A stretch of 64,000 bases of DNA from contig JAKLIG010000002.1 of assembly GCA_022709735.1 (NCBI GenBank), positions 1,949-65,948 of the forward strand. Reading direction: 5' to 3'. Numbering within the stretch: the first letter of the stretch is position 1; every line of letters starts with the position of its first letter. The DNA is from Patescibacteria group bacterium. GTDB lineage: Bacteria; Patescibacteriota; Minisyncoccia; Moranbacterales; UBA2206. This document shows positions 6,916 to 58,340 of this stretch, piece by piece. The translations under genes and the position numbers were made by a program. A model generated the notes under the pieces. It was given only the letters and a program-made list of their open reading frames with translations, searched no databases and was not told the DNA's origin.

Positions 6916-7923
6916 TTATTCTTCCGCCTTTTCTCTTTCTTTCAATTTTTCATAAATCCCTTTGGAAATTTCTTTCATAAGTTTCGGGTCCGCTTTGAGC
7001 GTTGCTTTGGCCACTTCCCGACCAACTCCCAGCTTTATTTCTCCAAAGTTAAAAGAATTACCTTTCTTTTCAACCACTTCATATTTTACTCCTGTATCCA
7101 GGATATCTCCAGAAGCGCTGATGCCTTCATTATACATAATATCGAATTCGGCTGTTTTGAATGGCGGAGCAACTTTATTTTTGACAATCTTAATTTTTGT
7201 TCTGTTTCCAACAATGTCTTCGCCTTTTTTGATCTGCGCGCTTCTCCTCACTTCAATTCGAACTGAAGCATAAAACTTTAGAGCGTTTCCTCCTGTGGTC
7301 GTTTCCGGATTGCCAAAAACTATTCCAATTTTCATTCTGATTTGATTGATAAAAATTACCGTGCAATTGGATCGGGAAATTATCGCCGTGAGTTTTCGAA
7401 GCGCTTGAGACATGAGCCTAGCTTGGCGCCCCATATGCTGATCACCCATATCGCCTTCAATTTCCGCTTTTGGCACGAGCGCTGCCACAGAATCAACTAC
7501 AATAATATTCACCTCTCCGGAATTCACCAAAGTTTCCACGATATCCAGCGCTTGTTCACCATTGTCCGGCTGGGAAATCAAAAGATCATTAATATTCACA
7601 CCAATTCTTTTGGCATATTCCGGATCAAGCGCATGTTCCGCATCAATAAACGCTGCCACGCCTCCAGCTTTTTGCGCATTAGCAATGATATGCAAAGTGA
7701 GTGTAGTTTTTCCGCTGGATTCCGGACCATACACCTCTACCACGCGTCCTCTCGGAATTCCGCCAATCCCAAGCGCAATGTCTAGTGAAATCGCTCCGGT
7801 CGGAATTGATTCTACATCTACTTTTTTCACATCCCCAAGTTTCATAATCACGCCTTCACCGAATTTTTCTTTGATTCCTTCAACTAATTCTGTTAATTTT
7901 TTATCATCTTTTTCCTCTTTCAT
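6916..7923 (-). CDS. recA: recombinase RecA
   Basis: Walker [11 protein letters not shown]1/L2 loops, [14 protein letters not shown]. Confidence 0.95.
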
Positions 7924-8098: not shown

Positions 8099-9118
8099 CT
8101 ATTTTTTAGGCTTATTTTCGGCATTAATAGTCTTGGTTTCTGGAGTAAAAGTCACGCCTTTCACTGCGCCCGAATCCGGACTCAATGCCCCTAACTCTTT
8201 TCCATTAAGCGTAACAAAAGTTGCTTTGCCTTTTCCGGAACTTATCACAATTTTTTCTTTGGCTTCAAATAATTGCACTGCTCCGCTAAGCATCGTGCCA
8301 TCAAAAACTATACTGCCATCCGCTTCTGCGCTTATCCAAACTGGTCCTGGCTCAACCTTAATTTCAATCTTAATTTTATTCTCTGTTATATTTTCTGTTT
8401 TATTTTCCAAAGACGCTTCGTTATTTGTTTCTTCCGGTTCCTTATAATCCGAACGGATGCTCAAATTTTCCACCGACTCTTTGTCAAACTTATTTACTGA
8501 TTTCAGATTAATTGTATTCAATCCGGATTGCAAAGTTAGATTTTCTCGAAATCTTCCATCATCTCCAACCAAAATTGGCTGGTTATTTATAAACAACCTC
8601 GCCTCTTTATCCGTTATGCCTTCGATATAAACAGAATTTCCGGAAACTTGACTATTATTTTGCGGATTGAGAATTACCAAACTTGGGGCATTAGCAAAAG
8701 AATTTATTTCCCGATAAAGCAGAAACAGTCCGGCGAAAACCAACACAATAATTGCCGAGATTAGAATTTTTTTGGGCGTAAAAATAAATGGCGAAATGTT
8801 AACTGGCTTTGATTTTCCCAAATCTTTTTTCTTATTTTTTTTCAAGTTCTCTCGAATTTCTTTTTCTCTTTCATAAAGACGAATAAGAATTTTTTCATCC
8901 ACACCCAAAAAATCAGCATAGCTTCGAAGAAACCCTTTCACATAAACATCCGCCGGAAGTTTTTCCCAAATTCCTTCTTCCAAATATTCCAAATAAGCCG
9001 GTTGGATTTTGGTAAATTTCGAAGCTTCAACAATCGAAGTTCGCTTATCACTTCGCAGTTTTTTCAATTTTTCTCCAAGCGTGAGTGTCCCAACGCTTTT
9101 TTTGGTAAAGCCATTCAT
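8099..9118 (-). CDS. RodZ-like cytoskeleton protein (N-terminal XRE HTH, single TM, C-terminal domain)
   Basis: HTH LGEKLKKLRSDKRTSIVEASKFTKI, then KGFLRSYADFLGVDEK, then a TM helix. Confidence 0.7.
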   Translation of the reverse strand: MNGFTKKSVGTLTLGEKLKKLRSDKRTSIVEASKFTKIQPAYLEYLEEGIWEKLPADVYVKGFLRSYADFLGVDEKILIRLYEREKEIRENLKKNKKKDLGKSKPVNISPFIFTPKKILISAIIVLVFAGLFLLYREINSFANAPSLVILNPQNNSQVSGNSVYIEGITDKEARLFINNQPILVGDDGRFRENLTLQSGLNTINLKSVNKFDKESVENLSIRSDYKEPEETNNEASLENKTENITENKIKIEIKVEPGPVWISAEADGSIVFDGTMLSGAVQLFEAKEKIVISSGKGKATFVTLNGKELGALSPDSGAVKGVTFTPETKTINAENKPKK

Positions 9119-48212: not shown

Positions 48213-48980
48213 ATGTATAAAGACCTCCAGACAATCGGACTAGGTAAAAACGAAGCTCAAGTTTATGAAGCCTTGGTTAAATTCGGCCCTTGTCGAGCAG
48301 GCGTTATTATAAATAAATTAGATATCCACCGAAATTTGGTTTATCAGTCGCTGGAAACACTCATCGCCAAAGGTTTTGCGGTGAAAGTAATCAAAAAAAA
48401 TGTTTGGACTTTTCAGATTACTGATCCAAAAAGTTTGCTTACTTCGCTCAAAAGCAAAGAAATGATCGCTCATGAAGTGATAAAGCAAATCCAAACTTTT
48501 CACCATCAGGCTAGCCAGCAGATCGTCGTCTATGAAGGCATTGATAGTTATCGAAATTATTGGATGAGTTCGCTAGAAAAAATTCCGGAAGGCTCAACCA
48601 TTCATTGCCTCGGCACCGTCAATAATGAATCTTTTTTCAAACTGCTCGGGCCCTTTGCCAAGAAATATATGGAATTAAAAATCAAGAAAAATATTATTTG
48701 GCAAACAATTCATTTTAAAATTACAAAAAGTGAAATTGAAATGCTCAAAAATTTTCCCGAGCTTACGCGATATAGATTATGGCCGAAAGATATTGAATGC
48801 GCTGGGAATTTCAATGTTACTAATAATACAATAATCATCCAGTCCTTCGTTGAACCGCTTCGCATCATTGAAATAAAAGATTCAATCATGGTTTCAGTTT
48901 TTCAAAATTATTTTGATATGATGTGGGAGAAATCAACTCCTATTACGCCGGAAAATATTGAGAAATTTAAAGGAAAATAA
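48213..48980 (+). CDS. TrmB-family transcriptional regulator (paralog 2 of 3)
   Basis: wHTH LQTIGLGKNEAQVYEALVKFGPCRAGVIINKLDIHRNLVYQSL. Confidence 0.55.
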   Translation: MYKDLQTIGLGKNEAQVYEALVKFGPCRAGVIINKLDIHRNLVYQSLETLIAKGFAVKVIKKNVWTFQITDPKSLLTSLKSKEMIAHEVIKQIQTFHHQASQQIVVYEGIDSYRNYWMSSLEKIPEGSTIHCLGTVNNESFFKLLGPFAKKYMELKIKKNIIWQTIHFKITKSEIEMLKNFPELTRYRLWPKDIECAGNFNVTNNTIIIQSFVEPLRIIEIKDSIMVSVFQNYFDMMWEKSTPITPENIEKFKGK

Positions 48981-49003
48981 AAATCGCTGACAAAGCGATT
49001 TTT
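48981..49003 (+). terminator. intrinsic terminator after the TrmB-like gene
   Basis: ATCGCT-GACAA-AGCGAT followed by TTTT. Confidence 0.6.
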
Positions 49004-49004
49004 G

Positions 49005-49088
49005 TGGTCCAGGTGGGACTCGAACCCACACGACCTTACGGACACAACATTTTAAGTGTTGCGCGTATACCAATTCCGCCACTGGACC
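49005..49088 (-). tRNA. tRNA-Leu(TAA)
   Basis: class II: GGTCCAG...anticodon loop CTTAAAA...long variable arm...GTGGGTTCGAGTCCCAC CTGGACC. Confidence 0.85.
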
Positions 49089-49097
49089 AAAATAAAA

Positions 49098-49592
49098 TTA
49101 AGTTCTTCTCTTTCTGTTCTTTCCTCTATGTGTTTGTTTTAAACTATGGCAATTTGGGCATAACACTCTCAGGTTTTTTAATCTATTATCGGTACTATCA
49201 CCATTTATGTGATCCAGCTCAAGTGGCAATCTCCCATCTGCTGATATTTTATGCCACCCACATTCTTCACAATATTTTGGTTTTAAATTTTCTTCAAATA
49301 ATCGTTTTTTTAATTTATAGCTTTGGAAATAGTTTCCTTTTACAAGAATATCTCTTAACTTTATTCTGGGTTTTCCTATTCCTTCCAAGCCTCTACTCCA
49401 CCCTCTGCCTTTTAAATGCTTGGAATCTATTTTATAAAATTCGATGTATTTTTTTATCTGAGAATAATTTCCGCCAGCTTCTCTTAATTTTAATTTAGAC
49501 AAAACCTTCCTTATACTTGTGCTATTTTTTACCGCGATCCTTAATTGGTCTTCTGTCCAAGTTCTTTTTCTATTTGTTTTTATTATAATCAT
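49098..49592 (-). CDS. HNH endonuclease (free-standing, homing-endonuclease-like)
   Basis: CEECGWH...LELDHINGDSTDNRLKNLRVLCPNCHS HNH/Zn motif; stop codon 10 nt upstream of the tRNA-Leu(TAA) 5' end. Confidence 0.7.
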   Translation of the reverse strand: MIIIKTNRKRTWTEDQLRIAVKNSTSIRKVLSKLKLREAGGNYSQIKKYIEFYKIDSKHLKGRGWSRGLEGIGKPRIKLRDILVKGNYFQSYKLKKRLFEENLKPKYCEECGWHKISADGRLPLELDHINGDSTDNRLKNLRVLCPNCHSLKQTHRGKNRKRRT

Positions 49593-49666
49593 GGTAGACT
49601 TAAATAGTTATATTACACTATAAGTATACCATAAATAATATCTGATGCAATTTTCGAGGTCGCGTC

Positions 49667-49737
49667 CGGGATTGAACCGGAGTACAGGGTTTTGCAGACC
49701 CTTGCCTAACCGCTCGGCCACGCGACCGCAACTATAT
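49667..49737 (-). tRNA. tRNA-Cys(GCA)
   Basis: GGTCGCG...anticodon loop CTGCAAA...TCCGGTTCAATCCCGGA CGCGACC. Confidence 0.8.
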
Positions 49738-49834
49738 TTTATACTATCAAAGGCTGTATAAGTAGTCAATTTTAAAATACAAAAACCCTTCTCTTACGAA
49801 AAGGGTTTTTGCTTCTATTTAAAATCTTTATTTT

Positions 49835-55583: not shown

Positions 55584-55680
55584 TTTATTTTAATTATTTA
55601 ATTACTTTTTTATTATAACAGATTTTCCCAATTTTCAAAAAACAAAAACAGCCCAATTTAAGGCCGTTTCTGAAATTTTG

Positions 55681-55752
55681 AGCGGGTAACGGGAATCGAA
55701 CCCGTCGCTCGTCCTTGGCAAGGACGTATATTAGCCACTATACGATACCCGC
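55681..55752 (-). tRNA. tRNA-Gly(GCC)
   Basis: GCGGGTA...anticodon loop TTGCCAA...CGGGTTCGATTCCCG TTACCCGC. Confidence 0.85.
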
Positions 55753-55890
55753 CTGCCTGATTTGCTTACTTTATTATTTATCCCCAACTATTTAAGTTAT
55801 ATAAATTTAATTCTTAGTTGAGACTATTTGATAAAATAAGCAAATCTGGCAGGCACGCCCACCTTGAGCAAGTTTGGCAGGCACGCCCTT
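55752..55890. repeat. tRNA-proximal palindromic TIR element, copy 2 (abuts the tRNA-Gly 5' end)
   Basis: CCTGCCTGATTTGC...GCAAATCTGGCAGGCACGCCC, plus a second GGCAGGCACGCCC 16 bp later. Confidence 0.7.
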
Positions 55891-55927
55891 ATTCTTTGTC
55901 CTTCTTAAATTTTTGATCTTAGCGTTG

Positions 55928-55999
<72 letters not shown>

Positions 56000-56106
56000 C
56001 TACCTAATTTTCCTATCTTATTATAATTCCTCAACTGTTTCAGTTATATAATCTCTATTCTTAGTTGAGGTAAAATATAACAAAATAAGAAAATTTGGCA
56101 GGTAAA
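56000..56106. repeat. tRNA-proximal palindromic TIR element, copy 3 (abuts the tRNA-Phe 5' end)
   Basis: CCTACCTAATTTTCC...CCTCAACTG...CAGTTGAGG...GGAAAATTTGGCAGG; ~97% identical to copy 4. Confidence 0.8.
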
Positions 56107-56269
56107 CCTCATGATTTTATGGTGCACGCTAAGGGACTTTCACCCCGCACCATTTTCAAGAAAAAATTCTGTTTTAGTAAATTCGAGAGCGAAGCGGCTT
56201 CGCCTTAAAATTTTTTATTATTAGAGACTTTCCAAAAAATGGTGCGGGACGAGCCCCTAACCTATTTTG

Positions 56270-56342
56270 TGGGCAATATAGGACTCGAACCTATAACCCT
56301 CTCGGTGTAAACGAGATGCTCTAGCCATTGAGCTAATTGCCC
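56270..56342 (-). tRNA. tRNA-Val(TAC)
   Basis: GGGCAAT TAGCTCAATGGCTAGAGC...anticodon loop TTTACAC...ATAGGTTCGAGTCCTAT ATTGCCC. Confidence 0.85.
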
Positions 56343-56374
56343 ATGCGAACTCATAAAATTTTAGTAATTAAATG

Positions 56375-56410
56375 AACGAGGTGCTCTAGCCATTGAGCTA
56401 AGCGTGCCTG
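56375..56410 (-). pseudogene. tRNA 5'-half remnant (acceptor, D-arm, start of anticodon arm)
   Basis: GGCACGC TTAGCTCAATGGCTAGAGCA CCTCG TTCAT... then no 3' half; D-arm identical to the adjacent tRNA-Val; abutted by TIR-element copy 4. Confidence 0.55.
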
Positions 56411-56512
56411 CCTAATTTTCCTATCTTATTATAATTCCTCAACTGTTTCAGTTATATAATCTTTATTCTTAGTTGAGGTAAAATATAACAAAGTAAGAAA
56501 ATTTGGCAGGCG
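56405..56512. repeat. tRNA-proximal palindromic TIR element, copy 4
   Basis: GCCTGCCTAATTTTCC...GGAAAATTTGGCAGGCGAG; near-identical to copy 3. Confidence 0.8.
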
Positions 56513-56525
56513 AGCTAACTTACGT

Positions 56526-56593
56526 GCGAACGAGAGGACTTGAACCTCCACGGGATTGCTCCCATCCGCCTCGGGCGGACGCGTATACCTTCG
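56526..56593 (-). pseudogene. 5'-truncated class II tRNA (Leu-like) remnant fused to the 3' end of tRNA-Leu(GAG)
   Basis: has D-loop end, anticodon arm, variable arm GGGAGCAATCCCGT, T-arm GGAGGTTCAAGTCCTCT and 3' acceptor CGTTCGC A, but no matching 5' acceptor strand; CGAAGG microhomology at the junction. Confidence 0.5.
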
Positions 56594-56676
56594 TGCCTTC
56601 GGCGGGACTCGAACCCGCACGGCCTTGCGACCCATGCACCTCAAGCATGTGTGTATACCAATTCCACCACGAAGGC
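56594..56676 (-). tRNA. tRNA-Leu(GAG)
   Basis: GCCTTCG...anticodon arm CATGC TTGAGGT GCATG...variable arm GGTCGCAAGGCCGT...GCGGGTTCGAGTCCCGC CGAAGGC. Confidence 0.85.
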
Positions 56677-56681
56677 CTAGC

Positions 56682-57116
56682 TTATTTCTTCTCTTCCTTT
56701 TCAATTTCTTCTTTTTTCTCTTCTTTAGCTTCTTCTGGCACTGCTACTTCTTCTTTGATAAAATCCTTGATTTCTTTATATTTCATTCGACTTTTCTTGG
56801 CCGTCAAATCTCTGATGTAATAAAGTTTTGCCCTTCTAACTTTGGCCTTCTTGATTAGTTCTATTTTTTGCACATTTTTGGAAAGAATAGGCAAAATCAT
56901 TTCCACTCCAACTCCGTGGGAAATTTTTCTAACAGTAATTGTTGGCGAAGAGCTTTGTCTTCCTTTAACGCCGATTACAATTCCTTCGAAAAGCTGGACT
57001 CTTTCCTTTCCGCTTTCTTTGATCTTAAGATGAATTTTCACCACATCACCCGCTTGAAAATCAAGCTTTCTGCTTCCTCTTGAATTCTTATTAAATTCAA
57101 TCATTTTTTTATCCAT
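56682..57116 (-). CDS. rplS: 50S ribosomal protein L19 with Lys/Glu-rich C-terminal extension
   Basis: FQAGDVVKIHLKIKESGKERVQLFEGIVI...RKISHGVGVE L19 signature. Confidence 0.85.
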   Translation of the reverse strand: MDKKMIEFNKNSRGSRKLDFQAGDVVKIHLKIKESGKERVQLFEGIVIGVKGRQSSSPTITVRKISHGVGVEMILPILSKNVQKIELIKKAKVRRAKLYYIRDLTAKKSRMKYKEIKDFIKEEVAVPEEAKEEKKEEIEKEEKK

Positions 57117-57186
57117 AGCTTTATTATAACAAATTATTAGATTAAATAAAAAATTGCCAAAATTTAGAATTTTTAGCCTTTTTATA

Positions 57187-58152
57187 CTAGCTTTTTATTC
57201 CTTTCTCGTCAAGGAACTTCTGGAAATCGCTAGGCAACTCCGATTCAAATTTGAAATCATTACCATTTAGGCTAAATTCAATTTTTTTGGCATGGAGCAA
57301 GTGCCTTGAAATATTTTTTTCCGACTTAGTATTTTTGAGCTTATATTTTTCATCCCCCAAAATTGGATTCCCGATTGAAGACAGATGCACTCTAATCTGA
57401 TGCATCCGACCAGTTTTCGGTTTTGCCTCTACTAAAGAATACTCTGCAAATTCTTTGAGCACTTTGTATTCGGTAGTCGCTGGGCGTATTTTTGTTTTAG
57501 TTTTCCCGCTAGCGATAACTTGTTTTTTATAATCAGCCGAGCGCGCAATTGATTTATCAATTATTCCTTTTTTATTTTTTAATTTTCCGCAAACTATCGC
57601 CCAATATGTTTTTTGAATTTGGCGATTCTTAAATTTATTTTTGAGTTCTTCAAAAGTTTTTTGATTTCTGGCCACAATCATAATCCCACTCGTATCTTTG
57701 TCTAACCGATGAACAATTCCCGGCCGCAGATTTACTTGCCCTGAGCTTGTCGAAGGATCGCCAACATTTTTGATTTCTGGAAATTTATATAGCAATCCAT
57801 TAACCAAAGTATCTTGTTCGCTTTTATCGCTCGGATGCACCAAAAGTCCGGCTGGTTTATTTATGACAATAATATTTTTGTCTTCAAGAATAATTTCAAA
57901 TTCAACATTTTTATTCGGTGCTAATTGTTTTTGTTTCAAATTCCATAATTCATAATTCCTAATTCCTAATTCATCACTATTTTTCAAAATATAACTTGGT
58001 TTTACAATTTTATTATTTACCAAAACATTTCCCATTTTTATATTTCTAATAATTTCTCCCCTCGTAATTTCGGAATTTAAAAAAACTTCCTTTTTGAGGA
58101 ATTTATCAATTCGTCCGCCAGAGTTATTTTTTACGACAATTACTTTTTTCAT
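57187..58152 (-). CDS. RluA-family pseudouridine synthase (RluD-like, S4 domain plus catalytic HRLDKDTSG)
   Basis: S4-like N-terminus, catalytic Asp motif HRLDKDTSGIMIVAR. Confidence 0.85.
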   Translation of the reverse strand: MKKVIVVKNNSGGRIDKFLKKEVFLNSEITRGEIIRNIKMGNVLVNNKIVKPSYILKNSDELGIRNYELWNLKQKQLAPNKNVEFEIILEDKNIIVINKPAGLLVHPSDKSEQDTLVNGLLYKFPEIKNVGDPSTSSGQVNLRPGIVHRLDKDTSGIMIVARNQKTFEELKNKFKNRQIQKTYWAIVCGKLKNKKGIIDKSIARSADYKKQVIASGKTKTKIRPATTEYKVLKEFAEYSLVEAKPKTGRMHQIRVHLSSIGNPILGDEKYKLKNTKSEKNISRHLLHAKKIEFSLNGNDFKFESELPSDFQKFLDEKGIKS

Positions 58153-58156
58153 TTTG

Positions 58157-58240
58157 TGCCCAGAAGAGGACTCGAACCTCCAATCCCTTGCGGGAACCAG
58201 TTCCTAAGACTGGCGCGTATACCAATTCCGCCATCTGGGC
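58157..58240 (-). tRNA. tRNA-Leu(TAG)
   Basis: GCCCAGA...anticodon loop CTTAGGA...variable arm TTCCCGCAAGGGAT...GGAGGTTCGAGTCCTCT TCTGGGC. Confidence 0.85.
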
Positions 58241-58256
58241 ATAATTTATTTTAATG

Positions 58257-58340
58257 TGGGCGAAAGAGGACTTGAACCTCCAAGGGATTGCTCCCGCTAA
58301 CACCTGAAGCTAGTGCGTTTGCCAATTTCGCCATTCGCCC
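58257..58340 (-). tRNA. tRNA-Leu(CAG)
   Basis: GGGCGAA...anticodon loop TTCAGGT...variable arm CGGGAGCAATCCCT...GGAGGTTCAAGTCCTCT TTCGCCC. Confidence 0.85.

Follow-up and report, generated by a model that had tools for sequence, protein, structure and literature searches.

The locus and its endonuclease gene

The window analysed here is a stretch of 64,000 nucleotides (nt) from contig JAKLIG010000002.1 of a Patescibacteria group bacterium. On its minus strand, a tRNA-Cys(GCA) gene is followed by an open reading frame (ORF) for an HNH endonuclease of 164 amino acids (aa), by 9 nt of spacer and by a tRNA-Leu(UAA) gene. We are concerned with this endonuclease gene and the short sequences which accompany it, together called the cassette. 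The ORF is the only long one between the two tRNA genes, both of which were found by ARAGORN and Rfam alike, and its ATG lies 63 nt past the end of tRNA-Cys. The initial annotation of this DNA, made from the letters alone, had described a 164-aa HNH ORF just before tRNA-Leu(TAA) with tRNA-Cys upstream, and ARAGORN, Rfam and Pfam agree with it; the observation itself stands, while its interpretation has to be changed in part. The features of the locus, in their order along the minus strand, are the following:

49741..49769 (-): promoter-like site TTGACT-17-TAGTAT with an upstream TG, ahead of tRNA-Cys (consensus scan)
49656..49727 (-): tRNA-Cys(GCA), upstream neighbour of the cassette (ARAGORN; Rfam tRNA, 58.5 bits)
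49621..49632 (-): 5' arm of an inverted repeat, ATGGTATACTTA, with the core GGTATAC (repeat search)
49603..49620 (-): hairpin loop of 18 nt, TAGTGTAATATAACTATT, with the -10-like sequence TGTAATATA (read from the sequence)
49591..49602 (-): 3' arm of the inverted repeat, TAAGTCTACCAT, overlapping the first two bases of the ATG
49098..49592 (-): HNH endonuclease ORF, 164 aa (ORF call, Pfam, PHROG, AlphaFold2 model)
49428..49559 (-): N-terminal three-helix domain, codons 12-55, putative DNA-binding module (AlphaFold2 model)
49107..49283 (-): HNH beta-beta-alpha-metal / Zn-ribbon catalytic domain, codons 104-162 (Pfam, invariant residues)
49089..49097 (-): 9-nt spacer from the HNH stop codon to the 5' end of tRNA-Leu (sequence, ORF call)
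49004..49088 (-): tRNA-Leu(UAA), intact (ARAGORN; Rfam, 62 bits)
48979..49003 (-): intrinsic-terminator-like hairpin directly after tRNA-Leu, presumed end of the operon

Since a promoter-like site stands before these genes and a terminator-like hairpin after them, tRNA-Cys, the ORF and tRNA-Leu look like one operon, of which the site at 49741..49769 is presumably the promoter. In what follows, loci numbered with an L are related loci from other genomes or contigs which were compared with the window. The whole unit of promoter, tRNA-Cys, HNH gene and tRNA-Leu (window 49000-49770) is inverted in the 85%-identical relative L001 (5460-6227) and also in L002; between the window and L001 the flanking TrmB-like and 3D-domain genes, which are the neighbours of the cassette in the window, stay collinear around the inverted unit, and the TTGACT-17-TAGTAT motif travels with the operon. 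The window is part of a cellular chromosome: it holds ORFs of the size of RNA polymerase subunits, a gene for ribosomal protein L19 and several tRNA clusters, and an identical protein is recorded from a metagenome-assembled genome of Candidatus Moranbacteria (Patescibacteria, in the Candidate Phyla Radiation, CPR). The phage-like context evoked by the initial annotation is thus not the one observed, as nothing phage-like was found near the HNH gene in the window; nor did tblastn reveal a second copy of the gene there.

The protein is a member of the HNH / His-Me finger nucleases. It has the catalytic His, the conserved Asn and the second His, and it lies above the Pfam gathering thresholds of HNH (PF01844; residues 108-153, 8.7e-6, 26.2 bits for a cut-off of 21.4) and of HNH_3 (PF13392; 1.6e-5, 24.9 bits for a cut-off of 24.8). 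Of the two kinds of domain mentioned in the initial annotation, HNH_3 is therefore present above its cut-off, while the Pfam search found no NUMOD domain in the 164-aa protein. The PHROG family phrog_10822 ("HNH endonuclease") matches over the full length (residues 7-163, E = 8.1e-42). Across 95 relatives, H128, N140 and H149 are invariant, as are the four Zn cysteines C108, C111, C145 and C148 (two CxxC pairs); A39-G40-G41-N42-Y43, in the N-terminal domain, is invariant among relatives too. The AlphaFold2 model (pLDDT confidence score 85) has an N-terminal domain of three helices (residues 14-52; helices 14-22, 27-33 and 40-52, with pLDDT >90), a poorly ordered linker and the HNH/Zn domain, in which strands 125-128 and 141-144 are followed by a helix (146-150). 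Judging from this model, the N-terminal domain probably binds DNA. Modular homing endonucleases are usually built from a nuclease module with a DNA-binding one tethered to it, as has been reviewed for I-TevI (PMC2988022). The neighbours of the model found by Foldseek are HNH domains only, those of McrA and Cap5. Foldseek and the profile search of the Protein Data Bank (PDB) together matched the HNH motif alone (McrA, Cap5, DotN), and neither gave a structural lead for the N-terminal domain.

The association with tRNA-Leu(UAA)

A protein search yielded 3,671 clusters, of which the best 120 are 65-85% identical to the protein of the window, and a scan with one genome per species detected relatives of the gene (61-85% identity) in at least 590 species genomes. 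The carriers include Moranbacteria, Curtissbacteria, Roizmanbacteria, Levyibacteriota, Saccharimonadales, Peregrinibacteria and Berkelbacteria, as well as Falkowbacteria, Yonathbacteria, Nomurabacteria and many others; identities within this cellular clade run from 55 to 99%. In all of the 80 loci which were fetched across the CPR, tRNA-Leu(taa) is found directly 3' of the ORF and on the same strand. Because the same abutment recurs in 80 out of 80 related loci from other genomes, we concluded that the adjacency of the ORF and tRNA-Leu is not due to chance. Relative to the start of the tRNA, the stop codon is found anywhere from -102 to +47 nt (90 loci), the mode being 3-5 nt, and about one ORF in three has its end within the tRNA. 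In L059, L073, L087 and L090 the stop codon of the HNH ORF is the anticodon TAA itself; in other loci it falls in the D-arm or in the variable arm. The mRNAs whose stop lies inside the tRNA would lose their stop codon, as the 5' maturation of the tRNA cuts before it. Inspecting the sequences by eye, we saw no convincing promoter of tRNA-Leu inside the 3' end of the ORF.

The tRNA-Cys gene is found upstream in only about two thirds of the loci, its place being otherwise taken by transfer-messenger RNA (tmRNA), tRNA-Gly or a protein gene. Hence the invariant partner of the cassette is tRNA-Leu(UAA) and not the Cys/Leu pair: the initial annotation, which had framed the gene as an insertion in the Cys/Leu spacer, located it rightly for the window but not for all of its relatives. 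No conserved partner genes were found around the cassette, whose flanks otherwise differ between lineages. In the Moranbacteria relatives L005-L008 (5490-5744 (+)), the 3D-domain gene and tRNA-Cys are separated by an 84-aa ORF with a GIY-YIG domain (Pfam 2e-18), of which the window, with only about 107 nt at that place, has no counterpart. The tRNAs Leu(gag)-Val-Phe-Gly(gcc), followed by Cys and Leu(taa) (window 55680-58340 (-) and 49004-49727 (-)), recur in this order in L005 and L056, with about 6 kb of protein genes between the Gly(gcc) and Cys tRNAs in the window. We take the Gly(GCC)-Cys-Leu(UAA) part to resemble the glyW-cysT-leuZ operon of E. coli.

We also built a sample of loci chosen by their tRNA alone, scanning metagenome contigs for the pattern of the D-arm and anticodon arm of tRNA-Leu(UAA). 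Among the 110 such loci with enough upstream sequence, the HNH gene is present in 47 and absent from 63, of which 8 are on contigs with at least 55% GC and may not belong to the CPR. The spacer between tRNA-Cys and tRNA-Leu, a comparison already proposed in the initial annotation, is accordingly bimodal: it measures 3-98 nt without the gene and about 530-670 nt with it. Four syntenic pairs of an occupied and an empty locus (L049/L107, L125/L189, L173/L098 and L081/L209) have collinear flanks which are 70-87% identical. The gene is thus present or absent at one fixed site between collinear relatives, which is a mark of homing endonucleases. About five copies are broken: L097 and L181 carry internal deletions which leave N- and C-terminal pieces, and three more are split across frames.

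The pair L049/L107 also indicates where the cassette is inserted. In the empty locus L107, tRNA-Leu begins 8-11 nt past the end of the upstream gene; in L049, a 26-nt fragment, GCCCAGGTGGCGAAACTGGTATACGC, stands exactly where the tRNA of L107 starts. This fragment consists of the acceptor 5' strand and the D-arm of a tRNA-Leu, and it is followed by the promoter region, the ORF and a complete tRNA-Leu. In this one pair, the cassette is thus situated within the gene for tRNA-Leu, past about position 26, and the 5' segment which it brings makes the gene whole again. Weaker remnants of a tRNA 5' end are seen in several more loci of the type called A below. Where tRNA-Cys is 1-10 nt upstream, only the D-arm-like part of the fragment remains, and this is also all that is left in the window (ATGGTATACTTA).

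Some loci differ from both the occupied and the empty state. In L112, an ORF of 222 aa of the LAGLIDADG type (Pfam LAGLIDADG_3, 5e-10) replaces the HNH gene between tRNA-Cys (7738-7812) and tRNA-Leu(taa) (8522-8607); judged by its sequence, it is a second endonuclease family at the same site. The spacer between these two tRNAs is 885 nt long and GC-rich in L115 (3350-4234) and L132 (390-1274), with no HNH gene and no convincing ORF; it contains a stretch of 34 nt resembling 16S rRNA (Rfam E = 1.7e-5, below threshold). At L123, which lacks the HNH gene, the spacer (370-957) has an ORF of 128-139 aa without a Pfam match. The 10-17 nt which separate tmRNA from tRNA-Leu in the empty loci L189 and L169/L183 hold CAGACA or AGTATAC, resembling the 5' arm GGCAGACAC of L125, the occupied locus syntenic with them; these may be scars left by the loss of a cassette, or may be there by chance. 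Finally, L206 (1736-2423) displays two copies of tRNA-Leu(taa) 516 nt apart, with near-identical downstream sequence, on a contig with Ns. Here an occupied and an unoccupied strain have probably been assembled into a chimera, in which case there would be polymorphism within one population; this tandem of HNH-tRNA-Leu and tRNA-Leu was left out of the analysis on account of its chimeric look and its Ns.

The inverted repeat and the relatives in phages

Upstream of the ATG, nearly every copy has the inverted motifs GG[TCA]A[N][ATG]C and its complement, with 17-19 nt between the two 10-mers; the core of the repeat is GGTAnAC/GTnTACC. Two layouts can be distinguished. In type A, which is that of most of the CPR, the order is 5' arm, TTGnnn, 3' arm, T(G)nTATAAT, 7 nt and ATG. 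In type B, to which the window and other Moranbacteria-like loci belong, a -10-like sequence is in the loop and the 3' arm directly adjoins the ATG or overlaps it. Motifs of type A are at the expected position in 43 (5' arm) and 30 (3' arm) of the 94 loci, and those of type B in 20 (5' arm) and, with both arms, in 19 of the 94; shuffled sequences give about 1 or 0. These counts, anchored on motif and position, replaced a generic search for the best inverted repeat, which in such AT-rich DNA returned 7.3 matches versus 6.8 in shuffles. The core motif is also the D-arm sequence of tRNA-Leu, GGTATAC in the tRNA of the window.

As RNA, the repeat of the window is predicted to fold with -16.9 kcal/mol (z = -3.3) and with the AUG within the stem, that is, as a hairpin which buries the translation start, in the manner of the T-even homing genes. 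In type A the hairpin is about 25 nt upstream of the AUG, which is uncovered. Over 87 pairs of arms from cellular and viral loci, 77.6% of the positions are paired, compared to 68.9% in shuffles (0 out of 500 reaching the observed value) and 35-43% in slid controls, and the recurrent compensatory variants include GGTAAAG/CTTTACC and AGTAAAC/GTTTACT. Strict covariation of the arms is weak within the CPR alone (7.49 versus 6.81), and the compensatory changes become clear once phage copies are added. The repeat may act as half-sites for the protein or as an RNA hairpin. As to promoters, near-consensus sites occur at identical coordinates in L033 (11 matches out of 12, with the TG) and in L049, where they end 7 nt before the ATG. 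Given an extended -10 ending 7 nt before the ATG, the mRNA of type A would be leaderless. The loops hold -10-like sequences in related CPR copies and TATAAATA in phage copies, both as matches to a consensus, and the -10-like site of the loop may act as a promoter.

Those annotated phage proteins which come closest show 35-44% identity over the whole length. Of twelve annotated phage relatives inspected, ten are in tRNA clusters and seven end at or inside the next tRNA; examples are found in GodonK, Dorin, Vibrio phage D69, S-CRM01, pSJ21, PEi26 and V45v66. A further 77 relatives (40-53% identity) come from viral contigs, and 48 of them adjoin a tRNA with the anticodon UAA, which is immediately upstream in 40 and downstream in 8. 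These viral copies have the same inverted repeat between that tRNA and the ATG, with TATAAATA, the consensus of the T4 late promoter, in the loop. No copy of the CPR type, that is, above 53% identity, was found in viral contigs. Many of the upstream tRNAs with the anticodon TAA (L224-L299) measure only 73-77 nt and have no long variable arm; since such an arm is expected of tRNA-Leu, the amino acid which they carry is uncertain. A patescibacterial phage with tRNA-Leu(TAA) has been reported (10.1101/2024.03.08.584096).

The initial annotation had pointed to the endonuclease genes of phage tRNA clusters, with the T4 mob genes as its example. The kinship is confirmed by the full-length relatives just described, and the nearer T4 parallel is SegB rather than the mob genes (PMC2330249, PMC2988022). 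SegB is a free-standing GIY-YIG homing endonuclease of the T4 tRNA cluster, whose ORF abuts the next tRNA at the 5' end of the latter. Its recognition site of 27 bp surrounds the T-psi-C stem-loop, a conserved motif of tRNA, and when the next tRNA matures, the mRNA of SegB is cleaved after its last sense codon, ahead of the stop (PMC2330249). For I-TevI, I-TevII, I-TevIII, segB and mobE of Aeh1, a hairpin silences the read-through RNA and the placement of the promoter yields a transcript free of the hairpin, the promoter being a late one for segB; I-TevI, moreover, represses its own promoter via an operator which mimics the homing site (PMC2988022). Like SegB, the cassette is free-standing between tRNA genes, has an ORF reaching up to the next tRNA, and is present or absent between related genomes. 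Unlike the cassette, SegB is GIY-YIG and not HNH, phage-borne and not cellular, associated with several tRNAs instead of being fixed to tRNA-Leu(UAA), and described with no duplicated tRNA 5' fragment; its homing has been demonstrated experimentally, whereas the cassette is known from its sequence.

With I-TevI the cassette would share a predicted hairpin blocking read-through translation, a promoter in or next to the hairpin and an operator-like mimic of the homing site; I-TevI is nevertheless GIY-YIG and intron-encoded, and in the cassette the roles of hairpin and operator are predictions. F-TflI and F-TflII, as well as F-TflIV (HegA), of T5/BF23, as cited in PMC2330249, are HNH enzymes inside a tRNA cluster as well. 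Homology to them is not of full length: when BF23 hegA and T5-like phages are searched by tblastn, the alignment is limited to residues 81-164, the C-terminal HNH half, which is about 46% identical to that of BF23 hegA. The N-terminal domain differs, and these are phage genes not tied to tRNA-Leu(UAA). The closest likeness is that of the phrog_10822 proteins (Gordonia phage GodonK gp149, Rhodococcus phage Dorin gp94, Salmonella phage pSJ21), which share the architecture over the full length at 35-44% identity, the setting in tRNA clusters and the end of the ORF abutting or overlapping the next tRNA, and whose relatives on viral contigs also share the GGTAnAC/GTnTACC hairpin and a neighbouring tRNA with the UAA anticodon. 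They differ in that their identity is at most 53%, that this tRNA is usually upstream and that they are uncharacterised proteins. Point by point, then, the anatomy of the cassette appears to match that of known phage systems. Our full-text search of the literature found these phage precedents and no description of the CPR element. What appears new is a cellular clade, as wide as the radiation and locked to one tRNA, with an insertion in a tRNA gene and a duplicated 5' segment, and a D-arm-like repeat common to the CPR cassettes and their phage relatives.

History of the cassette and its interpretation

We estimated the ratio of nonsynonymous to synonymous divergence (dN/dS) by the method of Nei and Gojobori on 94 distinct coding sequences; it lies between 0.015 and 0.16 wherever dS is measurable. 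Low dN/dS together with saturated synonymous sites means that the HNH gene is old and functional. This, and the presence of the gene at the same site in so many species, does not fit a sporadic insertion. The neighbour-joining tree of the proteins is star-like and, by eye, groups the named lineages broadly as in the current taxonomy. The divergence of the protein and that of the tRNA are correlated overall too weakly (Mantel r = 0.13) to settle between vertical and horizontal descent. The cassette is also present in four GC-rich genomes, of which three are labelled Elusimicrobia, each time at a different tRNA-Leu(UAA) that is the genome's own; the gene is there 6-14 GC points below its flanks, and in L087 the GC content at third codon positions is 0.52 as compared to 0.60-0.67 in the neighbours. 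These compositions support at least one movement between phyla, with acquisition by the GC-rich genomes.

The reading which we favour, with a probability of about 0.55, is that of a homing-endonuclease cassette, free-standing, which has specialised on tRNA-Leu(UAA) and has long resided in the CPR. In its favour are the fixed site, the variable occupancy, the decayed copies, the insertion within the tRNA gene by which the tRNA is regenerated, the LAGLIDADG family at the same site in L112, the conserved repeat with its promoter-like sites, the phage relatives next to tRNAs with the UAA anticodon, the invariant catalytic residues and low dN/dS, the acquisition by GC-rich genomes and the T4 precedents. 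Its unit comprises an inverted repeat overlapping a promoter-like site and a protein of two domains (three-helix, linker, HNH/Zn), whose ORF extends as far as where tRNA-Leu(UAA) begins. In the window, the cassette would be transcribed within the tRNA-Cys/tRNA-Leu operon, and the hairpin of the read-through RNA would bury the AUG; transcripts starting from the -10-like site of the loop would lack the 5' arm and could be translated, according to the scheme of I-TevI, segB and mobE. In most other CPR lineages, the extended -10 placed 7 nt before the ATG would give a leaderless mRNA. The 5' maturation of the tRNA would set the 3' end of the mRNA, which in the window would be the 9-nt spacer. The protein would recognise the conserved tRNA-Leu gene, plausibly through the D-arm motif mimicked by its own repeat, and cut loci free of the cassette, the repair copying the cassette with the conserved tRNA genes as homology. 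For such cleavage, the unvarying link with tRNA-Leu(UAA) and the recurrence of the D-arm-like motif at the promoter of the gene itself are indirect evidence. In the CPR, the cassette would be old, mostly inherited vertically and often lost, and kept functional by homing within populations or by a benefit to the host.

Several observations weigh against a homing cassette. A clear tRNA 5' fragment precedes the cassette in only 7 of 45 type-A loci, and the arm-pairing test leans towards pairing because the arms were partly selected for their complementarity. The synonymous differences are saturated in 99.7% of the pairs, including the window and the 85%-identical L001, and shallow clades of the tree share the type of tRNA-Leu and the flanking tRNAs. 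The cellular clade is old, functional and mainly vertically inherited, with many losses. No recent transfer between lineages was seen, as there is no pair with divergent contexts and unsaturated synonymous sites. The closest occupied and empty loci have flanks only 70-87% identical, so that these pairs show no polymorphism within a species. Finally, the tRNA-Leu of 41 occupied loci does not differ from that of 54 empty ones outside the variable arm: only the sequence 5' of tRNA-Leu differs, and no immunity polymorphism was found in the carriers. Since the tRNA-Leu of a carrier is intact and like that of the empty loci, neither a cassette which still homes nor one which is simply inherited explains how the carrier would escape self-cleavage.

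The main rival account makes the gene a domesticated or "addictive" former homing endonuclease, which entered the tRNA-Leu(UAA) gene early in the CPR and is now simply inherited. We regard this as the less probable account, though one to be taken seriously. Either of two routes might have retained it: its strong promoter may now drive an essential tRNA, UUA being a major Leu codon in these AT-rich genomes, or the nuclease may help its host, for example by cutting phage DNA with tRNA-Leu(UAA) genes or rival cassettes. The low dN/dS, the saturated synonymous sites and the congruence of clades with tRNA type and context speak for it; a near-consensus promoter stands directly upstream of the ORF and the tRNA, and embedded promoters are known to favour the retention of T4 endonuclease genes (PMC2988022). 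Also in its favour are the many phages which carry tRNAs with the UAA anticodon beside related genes, and the patescibacterial phage cited above. However, a gene missing from 63 of 110 loci and decayed in about five copies is dispensable, a role of the promoter leaves the selection on the catalytic residues unexplained, there are no conserved partner genes, and the best PADLOC match is a generic "homing endonuclease" model and not a defence system.

A McrA-like or other housekeeping or restriction nuclease which merely lies beside tRNA genes is very improbable. Some database sources do call relatives "McrA", and the only similarity to solved structures is with McrA-type HNH domains; yet this similarity is confined to the HNH motif of about 55 residues (E = 0.07 in the PDB profile search; Foldseek TM score 0.31), so that the protein does not belong to the McrA-type (type IV) restriction enzymes. 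Its relatives adjoin tRNA-Leu(UAA) in all 80 loci, as do most phage relatives, while the flanks vary between lineages and the whole operon can be inverted. Such invariant linkage to the tRNA effectively refutes a housekeeping role. The initial annotation had held that its own view would fall if the gene were universal at this locus, under purifying selection and engaged in a housekeeping function with partners: the selection and the constant site are indeed found, but the gene is not universal, some copies are decayed and no partners are conserved. Group I introns classically sit in tRNA-Leu(UAA), and the cassette is inside the tRNA gene in one lineage; a remnant of such an intron with its endonuclease ORF is for these reasons worth naming, although we hold it for the least likely of all the accounts. 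The insertion is after about position 26 and not in the anticodon loop, the complete tRNA is regenerated by duplication and not by splicing, and the non-coding part is only about 40-75 nt. As Rfam detected only tRNAs and tmRNA (in the window at the gathering threshold, in five related loci at an E-value threshold), with no intron family and an intact tRNA, the intron reading is effectively refuted, and the initial annotation was right to prefer a free-standing gene.

If the homing cassette is retained, a more detailed picture can be drawn, which we offer as a speculation and consider, taken as a whole, rather unlikely to hold in every part. The cassette would be a minimal mobile element targeting a tRNA gene, such as has yet to be described in cellular genomes. 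With its endonuclease gene it would measure about 560 bp, insert in tRNA-Leu(UAA) at the junction of the D-stem and the anticodon stem, and carry its own copy of the tRNA 5' part, by which the essential tRNA would be rebuilt. Its D-arm mimic would have two uses, one as a handle for recombination and one in regulation, as a hairpin or operator. It would be a long-lived gene drive across the whole CPR and their phages, and may by now be co-opted, host and phage copies turning against the tRNA-Leu(UAA) loci of one another.

That genes of homing endonucleases lie beside tRNA genes is textbook matter for T4 and T5, but such genes have been regarded as curiosities of phages. Here, members of a single clade sit at one and the same tRNA gene in no fewer than 590 species of bacteria, whose streamlined genomes measure about 1 Mb. 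Selection on them is as strong as that on core genes, yet about half of the loci lack the gene. This makes it a natural system in which to ask what lets a selfish nuclease last over deep time in such small genomes. Concrete, testable predictions on the target site come from the D-arm-like repeat and from the duplicated 5' fragment of the tRNA. Should the protein indeed read the tRNA-Leu(UAA) gene, it would be a compact nuclease specific for one sequence, its target being defined and conserved universally, as well as a marker of DNA exchange in organisms which are hard to culture, and it could explain the rearrangements around the tRNA operons of the CPR.

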